Shown: one piece after another, positions 6,731 through 11,287 of the stretch
Layout of the letters: the number at the start of each line of letters is the position of its first letter
Numbering within the stretch: the first letter of the stretch is position 1
IMG/VR virus record: IMGVR_UViG_2713896908_000007
DNA length: 64,000 bases
DNA from: a virus
Taxonomy: Duplodnaviria; Heunggongvirae; Uroviricota; Caudoviricetes
Direction: 5' to 3' (one strand)
Translations under genes and position numbers: made by a program
Notes under the pieces: model-generated
Told to the model about the DNA's origin: nothing
Seen by the model: only the letters and a program-made list of their open reading frames with translations
The model's database searches: none

Positions 6731-6758
6731 ATTACACTAATAAATTTATTAGAGCAAT
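6731..6758. promoter_or_regulatory. pair of overlapping, inverted P1 C1-repressor-type operators
   Basis: AAATTTATTAGAGCAAT (17/17 to the remembered consensus ATTGCTCTAATAAATTT, reverse orientation) overlapping ATTACACTAATAAATTT (15/17). Confidence 0.6.
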
Positions 6759-9700
6759 ATAGCAATAACGTCATGAGCTACACCACGAGTGTTCCCCTTA
6801 CAAGACACAGAACGTCTGGCAAAAAGAGGTTCCACTCTGAAGCCACTGTCTTGGTAAAGCTCCCTGATGTTTGGCGCACCACTATTAGTAATGAGGATCT
6901 TTGCACCTCGGCGATGAGCATCCATTAGCAGAGATACCAGGCGTTTTTGCTCTTCAAACTTAAAGTCATGACCGGAATAGTTTGTAAACCCCTCTGTATT
7001 GGGGAGCGGTTCATACGGAGGATCGCAAAAGATGACATCTCCTTCTCCGGCAGCTTCAATCACCGCTGAAAAATCACCACATACAAACTCAGAACGCCCT
7101 TCAGCACCAAGGAAGGCTTCCATCTCCTGTAATGGGAAATACGGAGTTTTATACTTCCCATAACCAACATTAAACTCACCGGCCTGGTTGTAACGCGTCA
7201 ATCCGTTAAAACAATGTCGGTTCAGGAACAAAAACGCTGCTGCACGATGTAAATCATCATAGGCTTGTTTGTTAAACGCATTCCGTACTGCCAGGTATCC
7301 TTCCTGTGTGTTGTAGTCCTGGAAAAACCGATGCGCCAGAGTGATAAGTGAATGACCCTCACGTTGCAGAGTCCTGTAAAAGTTAATCAGGTCAGCATTC
7401 ACATCATTTAGCAGATTTTCTTGATATCCGGCATTTATGAAGACAGCTCCGCCACCAACGAAAGGCTCGATCAGGCGCTTTCCGTCAGGTAAATGCCTAA
7501 AGATTTGTTCAAGAACACCAAATTTTCCGCCGACCCATTTAAATATGGGACGGTCAAATTCTGCCGTTAGCTTAACTCTCCGTTCTGTTGCTTCATGATT
7601 TTTTGCCTGCTGATATGCAGCCTTAATAATCCGCTCACCAATCCATCGCATTACTGGTATCGCCATGCTATTGCCGATCGCTTTGTAACGCGGTCCGTCA
7701 GCTGCAAGCATCGCGGCCTCTTCTTCGCTTAAATCTGGATAGTGATTGCGAAGGTATGCCAGTTCATCTGAAGTAACTTTTTTACGCTTTTCCGTCGGGA
7801 TCAACGTATGCCCATCAGGAAAACCTTGCAGTCTTTCACATTCGACAGGGGTAAGACGGCGGACAGCTACTGCTGCGTTTCCTACGTCATAGCAAACGGC
7901 TGTTGTATTTTTGGCCATTAAAGATGGTGAAGTATTCTTAGTTGCAGCATGTTGTGTACCGCTCATACGCTCAGGAAAAGCCAATGTAACAAGATGCTCA
8001 TGGCTTTCTTGCTCACGTGCCCGCAATGTACCATGCCCTTCTGACCAAAAACCTGCTCCTGTGCTGCTAAAAACTGCAAGGTCAGTGGCATCTTTAAAGT
8101 CTCTCGCCTTTACTGTCGATGCGGTTTCATCGCCAATATATTCCCCAAATGCCGCCATCCTGAAAGCGTTTACGGCTTTCGTCGATTTCATACCGGGGGT
8201 AATGTCAGCGTGTAGGCATGGATTTAGGCTTTCGCCACTGATTGCAGCGCCATTTGCAATAATGGCGGAAGCGATTTCCTTCTTTTTTCGGCTCGGCGCA
8301 ATATTCCGGCGCACGCCTTCGAACTCAAAAAGTACCGTTGCGGGATCGAGGTCTGTTCGAGCACTTGCGACAACAAACACGCGTCGGCGTCGTTGTGCCA
8401 CTCCGAAGTATTGGGCATCAAGGATTCTCCAGGCCACCTTTCGCTGCGGTCCATAAATACAACCACACTGCGGCCACTTTGGAGCATGGCAACCGGTTTT
8501 GCCATCCCACCGCCAGAACGCGTTACTTTTTCCTGATTCAGGTCGATCACCTGGTTCAAATGGCGCATCTTCTCCAGCCAATCCGGCAAGGAAACATCCG
8601 AAGGCGTTATCTGCCGATGACAAGACTCCTGGGACATTTTCCCAGACGATAACGGCTGGTTTGAGAAATGACTCAGCCCGTTTGTCGTCAATTGCATTTG
8701 CAAGCTCCACATACTTTAAAGTTAGCGCGCCACGCTCATCATCAAGCCCACCACGTAATCCCGCGATACTGAATGCCTGACAGTTATGGACCACCGCACC
8801 ATTGAGAATATAGGAATGATCACCTTCGACTTCTATGTTGTATACAGTATCTAGGCCTACCGATTTAAACTCTTTGACTGTTCGTAAAAGCATTCCATGA
8901 GCCAATCTTGATTTACGTGACAATTTCTGCGGGCAGATTGTTACCTGATAATAATTCCGTTGATTTACCACGCGATCCTCGATCACTTTTTTGGGCTCAA
9001 CTTCAATAAAGCTGACCGAAGAAACATAACCACAAGTCTGTGACACCCCCGCAACGCCCCAAGCAAGCGCAGGACTAACACTATTAATTCTAAATCCCGC
9101 TTTACCACTTGGTGTCCCATCAGTATCAAGATAGCCTTGTAAAAACACATGACGCAATGGATGCGACATCACCCATGCAGGGATACGCTTAGCATGGCTT
9201 AACTCGCCAAAATGTTCATTAAGCCAATTGGCATAACACGTATCATTCAAGGTTACTTTGATGCTCCCTCGGATTTCTCTTGCCACGGAAAATATGTTTT
9301 CTGGTATGCGACAATGAAACTTTCTCAATTTCTGGCAATTTATGCCAAAAACAACCGCCTTCTTAGATTTACCTCTCCATCTCCTAATATATCCATCGCC
9401 AACATAAGCGCCCGCAAGATACATAGCCTGTTCTTCAGACAAGAACCGAGAACAAATATCTGGAGATGCAATATTGAAATTAGTTAGAGCGCACCATTGA
9501 TATCCTGGCATATCACATGCTGCTCGCCATTCCGGTTCAGACAACAACTCTCTCTTAAAATATGTGCCATTTTTCCGGGTGTTTTGGGCTTTCCACCGAA
9601 CAGCCAGGAAGGGATGGTCATTGGTTGTTCTTATACCTAAAGGCTGCCCAACGGCATTAAGTAACCCCGTATTAGCTATTTTTGAACCAACTCTTTTTAC

Positions 9701-10036
9701 TTGTTGTAACCGCCCGAGATGACTGACTACGTAATCGCCAGGGCAAACATCTTCTATTGGTTTATAACCATTTTTACAAAGAACCATATGCCCCGCGGTA
9801 AAACATGGTGTTCCCCCGACGAGCACGTCAGGGGATTCGATTTCCCCAGCCAGGACTTTTTTGGCAAGTTTAGTCATGTCGTCAAGGTTGGCGACATGGG
9901 GCCAGCGGTGCGCAAGAACGGCCGATGGAAAAGACTCGATTTCAGCAAACCACGCCGGACGCATACCCAACGGTTCCCAGGCAATACTCGCGGCTTCAAT
10001 TCCACTGCAAACAGATCCATAGCACAGCTCTTTCAC
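6749..10036 (-). CDS. dmt: bifunctional DNA methyltransferase (N-terminal C5-cytosine MTase, C-terminal Dam-like N6-adenine MTase) with an intein
   Basis: C5 motifs ([30 protein letters not shown]) then Dam motifs ([22 protein letters not shown]); GTG start overlaps the hrdC stop. Confidence 0.85.
8783..9805 (-). other. intein (341 aa) with LAGLIDADG homing-endonuclease motifs, inserted before the catalytic Cys of C5-MTase motif IV
   Basis: GGTP|CFTAGHMVL...TNDHPF...[10 protein letters not shown]...[10 protein letters not shown]...[13 protein letters not shown]|CQAFSIAG; excision restores [12 protein letters not shown]. Confidence 0.8.
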
Positions 10037-10938
10037 TGCTTAGCCTCTCCACCAAGGGCATTTACCAGAGCATCAACCAGGCACGAAATTTCACTGGTCA
10101 ACAGGAAGAAATCTGCGTCCAGTCGCTGCGCGACATCTTCACTATCAATATCAGAGTTCTGCTCAAGCAATTCATCCGCAAATTTGACGCTGGTAAGGCT
10201 GAAGTTATGGTCCAGTGTAAATTTAATGCGGTTCTGCCAGTCGAGTGCCAACTTAGTGACGAGCTTGCCAGCTTCCAGGTGTGTGGAAATTTCATCGCTT
10301 CCCAAATCCTGCTTTTTCACTCGGGCAATACCGCCATCCTCAAGCACTGCCTTAAGTTCTGCCGCATCCCCCATTTGAAATCCCTGTGGAGCACTACCAT
10401 CACGTACCCAGTCGGTCAGCGTTAATTCAATGGGATTTTCAACACTTAGGGGAACAACAGGAAGAGAACCCAGAGATTTACGCATAAGCGCGAGCATATC
10501 CTCTGCCTGCCGCGCGCTGGCATTGATATAGATACGTTTAGTTGAACCGTCGTAGATCGCCTGGATAACAGAAAACTTTGAAAAAGCCCGTGGCAGAAGA
10601 GAATGCAGAACTTCGTCTTTCAGGGAGTCCTTCTCTGTTTTCTTCAGTTTACGCGCTTGTTCTTGCTCAAGTTTTCCAATTTTTTCTTGAATAGCTCGCT
10701 GGATAACCGGCGGGGGAAGAATTTTTGTTTCGCGCTTTGCTTCAACAAGGATAAAACCATTTCCATGCATAGCGATAACTTCGGAATTATCACCAAATGG
10801 CGATACAAAACCGAACTTGGCCATATCCTGACTACCGCATGGCGTGAAAAGGATCATTTTCGTTTTATCTTCTAAGTCGGTCAGATCCGCCTCACGAGAA
10901 AGTTTATAAATAGTAATGTTTTTCCAGTGCTTAAACAT
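10033..10938 (-). CDS. hrdC: recombination-associated protein RdgC homologue
   Basis: Collinear with remembered E. coli RdgC ([40 protein letters not shown]); start ATG at 10938 overlaps the upstream stop. Confidence 0.85.
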
Positions 10939-11287
10939 GTTGTAACCCTTGAATATCAACCACAGAAAGCTCGTCTTTGTAGAAAAATGCCAGGTTGTGG
11001 CCCCCCCTCGTTTGAGCGTATGAGCTGGGACCAATTTCGTTCTTCCAGACAAATGGCTTCAAATCCGTACGGCGAAGCATAAAAACGCGATTTGTTCCGC
11101 TCTGATTCCCAATGAGGCAAAAGCCTTCTTTCACCTTGATAGCCTGCAAGTTGTCGAGTTCACCGCTGGTTACACGGCTATCGAACTCCTTGCGGCTTAT
11201 TAGCTCCATCTGCATCTGACGACTCCAAACAAATGCCCATTGAAGGGCGATGGCTGAATAGTACCGAAAACACGACATAAAAAACAA
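10931..11287 (-). CDS. small protein upstream of hrdC (uhr-like); true start probably an internal Met
   Basis: ORF coupled to hrdC; the track start is a TTG inside the operator, so MQMELISRK is more plausible. Confidence 0.4.

Follow-up and report, generated by a model that had tools for sequence, protein, structure and literature searches.

What interrupts the catalytic motif of a phage DNA methyltransferase, and is the interruption removed, or even mobile? The stretch of DNA analyzed here (hereafter the window) covers 64,000 nucleotides of the IMG/VR virus record IMGVR_UViG_2713896908_000007, assigned to the Caudoviricetes, derives from a P1-like phage-plasmid and carries on its minus strand a homologue of dmt, the gene of the bifunctional DNA methyltransferase of phage P1. 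The encoded protein combines a C5-cytosine methyltransferase (C5-MTase) with a Dam-type N6-adenine methyltransferase, and its C5-MTase half is split by 341 residues. We conclude that this insert is almost certainly an intein, very probably a class 1 intein with a monomeric double-motif LAGLIDADG homing endonuclease, located between Pro77 and the catalytic Cys of motif IV. To judge from its sequence, the intein in all likelihood splices and its endonuclease may well be active at present, and we consider the element to be genuine and probably mobile.

The Insert in the dmt Gene

The alignment of the window with the reference P1 dmt at the DNA level (protein AAQ14041, record AF234172, 2265 bp) contained a single gap of exactly 1023 bp, which fell between the Pro and Cys codons, and the same gap was recovered at the same column with the dmt genes of P1, P7, SJ46 and p50579417. 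A preliminary description of the locus, made from the letters alone, had placed a 341-residue insert within motif IV at positions 8783-9805 and had quoted from it a block A with Cys1, a block B reading TNDHPF, two LAGLIDADG-like motifs and a terminal His-Asn followed by a +1 Cys. All these elements were present as quoted in Dmt residues 78-418, with the junctions reading ...VLVGGTP before Cys1 and ...NGAVVHN followed by CQAFSIAG, and the alignment with the four intein-less alleles confirmed a precise insertion. The deletion of the insert in silico restored GGTPCQAFS and a protein of 754 aa, the length of the reference P1 Dmt, as that description had also proposed.

The GC content of the insert is 42.7% vs 48.7% for the remaining gene. 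The open frame is beyond what chance would produce, since profile scores lie above their cut-offs (next section) and the chance expectation of an open frame of 341 codons is about 8e-8. The masses computed for the precursor, the spliced Dmt and the intein are 121.6, 83.3 and 38.3 kDa, respectively. The intein-less Dmt of phage P1 mod749::IS5 c1.100 (AAQ14041) lacks the 1023-bp insert and is identical to the spliced Dmt of the window at 708 of 754 residues; the operon uhr-hrdC-dmt is common to the intein-less P1 and to the window. The dmt locus of the window is 100% identical to that of the Escherichia albertii IncY plasmid pEA36_1.

Profiles, Motifs and Predicted Fold

Within residues 78-418, profile searches gave scores above cut-off for Hint_2 of Pfam (29.3 bits, cut-off 28.4), for LAGLIDADG_3 (PF14528; 29.0 bits, or 33.2 on the isolated insert, cut-off 22.5) and for the NCBIfam model TIGR01443 intein_Cterm (28.9 bits, cut-off 15.6). 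The Intein_splicing profile of Pfam reached 18-22 bits, under its gathering cut-off of 35.8, and was not counted as evidence. All class 1 hallmarks are found in the insert, namely Cys1, the TxxH motif, the terminal His-Asn and the +1 Cys, and both catalytic Asp are intact in the two LAGLIDADG motifs, LAGAYVGDG (Asp137) and LQGYLDTDG (Asp229).

Searching the Protein Data Bank (PDB) by sequence alone gave only weak matches, to the Spl DnaX mini-intein (E=0.0013), with which the region of blocks F and G aligns, and to PI-PkoII (E=0.012); a fold search was thus needed. An AlphaFold2 (AF2) model of the intein, built from 14 homologues, had a mean predicted local distance difference test (pLDDT) score of 91.4 and a predicted template modelling (pTM) score of 0.89. 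With this model, the top match of Foldseek in the PDB was PI-SceI (1.6e-17), and the other leading matches were likewise intein endonucleases, namely the TliVMA and PhoVMA inteins, PI-PfuI and PI-PkoII. The matches to PI-SceI and the archaeal intein endonucleases had E values from 1.6e-17 to 3e-09, TM-scores of 0.51-0.61 and identities of 11-16%; free-standing LAGLIDADG enzymes (I-SceI and the I-OnuI family) and mini-inteins appeared further down the list. The splicing domain is predicted to adopt the HINT fold, and two modelled helices with strands after them (residues 134-147 and 228-239) would fit the two alpha-beta-beta-alpha-beta-beta-alpha halves of a double-motif enzyme.

PI-SceI of the Saccharomyces cerevisiae VMA1, TliVMA, PhoVMA, PI-PfuI and PI-PkoII resemble the Dmt intein in having a HINT domain split around a double-motif LAGLIDADG domain, together with Cys1, His-Asn and a +1 Cys. 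Their hosts are V-ATPases and archaeal proteins, whereas the host is here a phage methyltransferase, and the Dmt intein, with 341 aa, falls short of the size of PI-SceI, for which the solved chains comprise about 394-448 residues. We rejected an assignment to the bacterial intein-like (BIL) or another non-splicing Hint class on account of the nested LAGLIDADG domain, the invariant catalytic site and a +1 Cys found in 128 of 128 family members (see below). The features of the locus are listed in Table 1.

Table 1. Features of the dmt locus in the window, with coordinates in the window and supporting values.
Feature	Position	Strand	Details
dmt precursor open reading frame (ORF)	6749..10036	minus	1095 aa, 121.6 kDa, GTG start; PF00145 104 bits, PF02086 193 bits; order: C5-MTase N-extein, intein, remaining C5-MTase, Dam-type N6-adenine methyltransferase
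N-extein, residues 1-77	9806..10036	minus	C5-MTase motif I (SVCSGIE) up to motif IV, ...GGTP
Intein, Dmt residues 78-418 (predicted)	8783..9805	minus	341 aa, 38.3 kDa
Intein block A	9767..9805	minus	Cys1, putative first splice nucleophile; Cys1 in 128/128 family members
Intein block B	9599..9637	minus	TxxH at Thr61 and His64; Thr and His invariant in 128/128
LAGLIDADG motif 1	9386..9424	minus	Catalytic Asp137, Asp in 121/128; helix 134-147 in the AF2 model
LAGLIDADG motif 2	9113..9154	minus	Catalytic Asp229, Asp in 126/128; PF14528 match at intein residues 221-284
Intein blocks F and G	8783..8851	minus	End at His340-Asn341; TIGR01443 28.9 bits; Asn341 in 128/128, His340 in 114/128
C-extein, C5-MTase part	7553..8782	minus	From Cys419 (+1 residue, motif IV catalytic Cys, CQAFSIAG); then ENV, QRRRR and the variable target-recognition region; aligns with M.HhaI
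C-extein stretch of about 120-150 bp travelling with the intein	8633..8782	minus	Flank haplotype common to all intein-containing alleles examined
C-extein, Dam-family N6-adenine methyltransferase domain	6752..7552	minus	Residues about 829-1093; TIGR00571 252 bits, PF02086 193 bits

The Interrupted Methyltransferase

Splicing the protein in silico raised its PF00145 score from 104 bits in three stretches to 124.6 bits in two, one of which crosses the splice junction (spliced residues 8-135 against profile positions 5-119). The spliced GGTPCQAFS aligned with GFPCQAFS of M.HhaI, ENV and QRRRR (motifs VI and VIII) following further on; motifs I, IV, VI and VIII are all present in the exteins. The counterpart of the +1 Cys is Cys81 of M.HhaI (chain numbering counted along the alignment), the catalytic nucleophile of motif IV in that enzyme.

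The reference P1 Dmt itself (locus L001, 1501-3765) reads VLVWGTPCQ, where the window allele (9806-9835) and the other alleles in the alignment all have VLVGGTPCQ. This replacement of the first Gly of GGTPCQ by Trp (GGG to TGG), three residues ahead of the catalytic Cys, might impair the C5 activity of the P1 reference strain. The variable, target-recognition region of dmt (window 7553-8300) occurs in several lengths, with exteins of 672, 754 and 807 aa among the aligned alleles (L004-L008 and L012-L014) and, elsewhere, annotated coding sequences with lengths of 2289 bp (about 762 aa) and 2589 bp (about 862 aa), the longer of which was found in two plasmids. This suggests that specificity domains are swapped modularly among P1-like plasmids, independently of the intein.

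A Family of Inteins at the Motif IV Site

We scanned 1.84 billion cluster representatives exhaustively with HMMER, the clusters being defined at 50% identity, and obtained 4379 matches with E<=0.001, of which 183 had E<=1e-30. Among the 150 matches listed, 140 representatives were full-length, and 127 of these had the site P/C...N/C(Q or T), where the slash marks the junction between extein and intein. PF00145 was detected in all 57 proteins sampled, PF02086 (Dam) being present among those only in the P1-type cluster. By a word-indexed search, we also recovered homologues that are 47-52% identical in other C5-MTases, with the junctions GGTP/C...HN/CQ, and actinobacterial homologues that are about 30% identical at a variant of the site, ASPE/C...N/CTNHS. 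The intein of the window is an ordinary member of this large family targeting the P/C site of motif IV, and we consider this position of the C5-methyltransferases as a major, little-discussed intein site, with at least 127 clusters (50% identity) among the top matches.

Conservation was counted over 128 inteins, these 127 plus that of the window. Cys1, the Thr and His of block B, the terminal Asn and the +1 Cys were invariant, and the penultimate His was kept in 114. The two LAGLIDADG Asp were retained in 121 and 126 of the inteins, respectively, and a conserved Lys in 126; the endonuclease thus appears to be maintained across the family, as expected of elements that are still homing.

Individual members depart from this pattern. 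One protein of 306 aa (P0023) has a mini-intein of about 125 aa without endonuclease domain at the same GGTP/C...HN/CQ site of a C5-MTase, as expected for the stage of the homing cycle at which the endonuclease has been lost. In a metagenomic homologue (P0009), motif 2 has DTNG, with Asn for Asp, and Asn also takes the place of the penultimate His (VVNN/C); this may be a decaying copy.

The genomic contexts examined for relatives were prophage-like. The proteins P0027 and P0028 of metagenomic prophages and P0011 of a Mannheimia haemolytica prophage bear inteins of the same family at the same site, with 47-57% full-length identity; unlike Dmt, their exteins are devoid of a Dam fusion. P0028 (55% identity), one of the two closest relatives outside P1-like elements, is encoded in a prophage that carries an integrase, immediately after genes for an rdgC homologue and SSB (L016, 6753-11048), and thus adjoins rdgC as dmt does in P1. 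The same contig contains a reverse transcriptase and a bAvd gene (L016, 17272-18976), an arrangement resembling a diversity-generating retroelement. In the Mannheimia prophages, the C5-MTase stops soon after the intein, at 439 aa (...VVHNCQSDKGG...; L018, 6001-7837; L019, 6001-7320), and in L018 the remaining methylase is a separate ORF of 177 aa; the break is apparently a frameshift or a pseudogene, and an HNH endonuclease gene follows just downstream. Apart from "Hint domain-containing protein" in Mannheimia, the source names of the clusters of these closest relatives were almost uninformative.

Distribution and Annotation in P1-Like Elements

The intein DNA was present in 152 of 5426 complete Escherichia coli genomes, so that about 3% of these genomes carry the intein on P1-like elements. 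The adjacent C5-MTase region of dmt was found in 493 of the genomes and the uninterrupted junction in 339; about 31% of the dmt alleles (152 of 493) are thus invaded. Among plasmids, 133 PLSDB entries contained the intein, from Escherichia (118), Salmonella (14) and Shigella (1). Five phage records had intein DNA at least 99% identical to that of the window and corresponded to three distinct phages, RCS47, vB_EcoM-Ro157c2YLVW and the laboratory P1 delta-res delta-mod isolate OP279344, the last of which is cited in two Argonaute papers. Five of the 153 places where the intein occurs in E. coli genomes are chromosomal, hence some P1-like elements or fragments of them have integrated. Two copies of the intein are present in E. 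coli strain 06-00048, one on a plasmid and one on the chromosome (NZ_CP015229.1, 1844818-1845840; NZ_CP012497.1).

No intein annotation was found in the feature tables examined. The products are named "Dam family site-specific DNA-(adenine-N6)-methyltransferase", "Dmt" or "DNA methyltransferase", and one fragment is annotated as "LAGLIDADG family homing endonuclease". Hundreds of public records of P1-like plasmids and phages, those of RCS47, vB_EcoM-Ro157c2YLVW and OP279344 among them, thus give only methyltransferase names to a product of 1095 or 1013 aa, and both the mature protein and the free endonuclease are consequently missed.

Possible Signatures of Mobility

We aligned 12 dmt alleles, including six distinct alleles containing the intein. 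The intein lies at the same column in exteins of the P1 type (754 aa) and of the P7 type (672 aa), two types whose variable regions are set apart by large indels. Among the intein-containing alleles, identity was 98.4-99.3% in the intein and 96.7-100% in the first 150 bp of the C-extein; between the extein types it was 92-98% in the N-extein and 88-94% in the remaining gene. All six intein-containing alleles shared a flank haplotype consisting of the synonymous codons ACA (Thr) and CCA (Pro) upstream and of seven positions from +24 to +117 downstream, and in RCS47 this tract ended between +117 and +126. Directly upstream of the site, the intein-less P1-type alleles have ACG CCT; in AAQ14041 the three codons beside the site are GGT ACG CCT vs GGA ACA CCA in the window, a synonymous difference. 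The four intein-less alleles that were first examined had the alternative state at every position of the haplotype. The shared flank matches what co-conversion during homing would produce and is consistent with it, without being decisive. Pairwise ratios of non-synonymous to synonymous substitution rates (dN/dS) over the intein were about 0.2-0.3 overall (0.17-0.38, with one pair at 0.71) and indicate purifying selection, although only about 30 sites are variable.

The data that bear on homing are a sporadic distribution, the presence in two extein types, an intein more conserved than its exteins and a flank haplotype that also occurs in some intein-less alleles (see below). Two empty-allele sequences are candidate targets of the endonuclease, GTCGGGGGAACACCT/TGTCAGGCATTC for the SA186 type and GTCTGGGGTACGCCT/TGTCAGGCATTC for the P1 reference, the candidate junctions being GGAACACCT/TGTCAG and GGTACGCCT/TGTCAG, respectively.

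Proposed Mechanism

In the mechanism that we propose, the 121.6-kDa precursor would be translated with motif IV split. An N-to-S acyl shift would take place at Cys1, after which the +1 Cys would attack the thioester with the same thiol that would later attack C6 of cytosine. Cyclisation of Asn341 would then release the 38.3-kDa intein, and an S-to-N shift would re-form the Pro-Cys bond to give the 83.3-kDa bifunctional Dmt. Since 341 residues split motif IV in the precursor, C5 methylation should need splicing, and the C5-MTase half should be inactive before it. The Dam domain, a separate fold more than 400 residues downstream, may work without splicing.

In a cell that harbours two P1-like elements, the motif IV coding sequence of an intein-less dmt would be cut by the free intein or by the unspliced precursor, and repair from the intein-containing copy would transfer the intein with a short flank, i.e., homing. 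We infer splicing, cleavage and the dependence of C5 activity on splicing from the features described above.

A more elaborate possibility, which we regard as improbable, is that the intein serves as a post-translational switch: the precursor would be active as a Dam methylase while cytosine methylation would be withheld until splicing, which could be conditional, for example on redox state, and the endonuclease, as a gene drive between P1-like phage-plasmids that are co-resident or superinfecting, would bias which dmt allele, with its linked flank, is inherited. Disulfide trapping is conceivable because Cys1, Cys10, Cys21 and the +1 Cys are near the junction.

Alternative Readings

Several observations weigh against an intein that both splices and homes. 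Using an artificial "spliced" junction as query to find intein-less alleles bearing the flank haplotype, we recovered SA186, HX138 and TUM9975, which carry it except for the Pro codon (CCT, not CCA). The linkage may therefore stem from the ancestral background in which the intein arrived, combined with ordinary mosaic recombination, instead of from co-conversion, and we do not count it as proof of the latter. About 69% of the dmt alleles are uninvaded, which fits a weak or inactive endonuclease or resistant target variants. The dN/dS values come from only about 30 variable sites in six alleles. Finally, the P1 record (AAQ14041) states that Dmt methylates the C5 position of cytosine only "perhaps", which bears on the cost of not splicing, and our literature search found no paper demonstrating the formation of 5-methylcytosine by Dmt.

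The haplotype in intein-less alleles and the high proportion of uninvaded alleles would both be explained if the intein were splicing-competent with an endonuclease that is no longer active, a passenger inherited vertically or shuffled, its patchiness arising from mosaic recombination of the P1-like kind. The P1-family dmt is indeed mosaic, with variable-region types of 672, 754 and 807 aa plus one of about 862 aa. We consider this reading as possible, if rather doubtful, given that both LAGLIDADG Asp and the conserved Lys are intact here and family-wide, that the intein is more conserved than the exteins across backgrounds and that the endonuclease region shows about 8 non-synonymous to 7 synonymous changes, well under the neutral expectation of about 3:1.

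It is unlikely that splicing is defective or very slow, with the C5-MTase half knocked out and the gene kept for its Dam domain only. All splice-site residues are intact here and show no variation across the family, every full-length allele examined keeps the frame of 3288 bp open, the splicing domain has a dN/dS well under 1 and the C5-MTase motifs of the exteins are undamaged. This reading nevertheless draws on the "perhaps" of the P1 record, on the Mannheimia prophage, whose intein-bearing C5-MTase is broken just past the intein, and on the requirement of P1 for Dam methylation at its pac sites for packaging, reported in a review, which could relax selection for fast splicing.

The reading of the segment as a conserved non-splicing accessory domain (Hint/BIL-like or a domesticated endonuclease), for which only the general fact of Hint and LAGLIDADG domestication speaks (e.g., WhiA, far down the Foldseek list), is scarcely tenable and was rejected because of the precise presence/absence polymorphism, about two thirds of the alleles, otherwise 93-98% identical, lacking the segment with base-pair precision, its boundaries falling exactly at Cys1 and at His-Asn followed by Cys, and its removal restoring the uninterrupted catalytic motif.

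Relation to Known Methylase Inteins

The preliminary description implied that no inteins had been described in this class of enzymes. This was incorrect, since a 2025 survey of actinophages lists C-5 DNA methylase (IPR001525) among the hosts previously reported with inteins (10.1101/2025.01.02.630785); moreover, more than 100 C5-MTase clusters (50% identity) were found here to carry a homologous intein in this position. Phage methylases of the N4/N6 families were also known to contain inteins (Kelley et al., 2016, PMC5050341; Gosselin et al., 2023, PMC9957025), the former study, a mycobacteriophage survey, reporting inteins in N6_N4 (PF01555-type) methylases of actinophages. The Dmt intein resembles these actinobacteriophage cases in that LAGLIDADG inteins occur there in orphan phage methylases, with a patchy distribution and signs of transfer between diverged methylase genes (PMC5050341; PMC9957025; 10.1101/2025.01.02.630785). 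It differs from them by its host, a Gram-negative phage-plasmid, by its bifunctional C5 and Dam extein and by its insertion at the catalytic Cys.

In the literature searched, where absence is no proof, we found no paper on an intein in P1-family dmt, RCS47, punaviruses or phage-plasmids. Several papers contained both "intein" and "cytosine methyltransferase", all of them unrelated. Methylases are unmentioned in the main text of Novikova et al. (2016; PMC4760082).

Mechanistically, this intein is ordinary; it is useful as an annotation correction and as a tractable natural system for homing and splicing. E. coli is commonly regarded as a host without inteins, a view for or against which our literature search found nothing. 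P1 and E. coli form the most tractable phage-host system, and a natural, apparently intact homing intein is placed in it here. As matched natural intein-free alleles exist, it becomes possible to measure directly how the intein homes, how far its flanks are co-converted and what splicing at a catalytic Cys costs.

The Gene Upstream of dmt

In the window, an upstream gene of the hrdC/rdgC family (10033-11052, minus strand) shares 4 bp with the GTG start of dmt, an overlap suggestive of translational coupling as in P1. The longest version of this ORF, from a TTG start, has 339 aa and exceeds the annotated RdgC of 301 aa.

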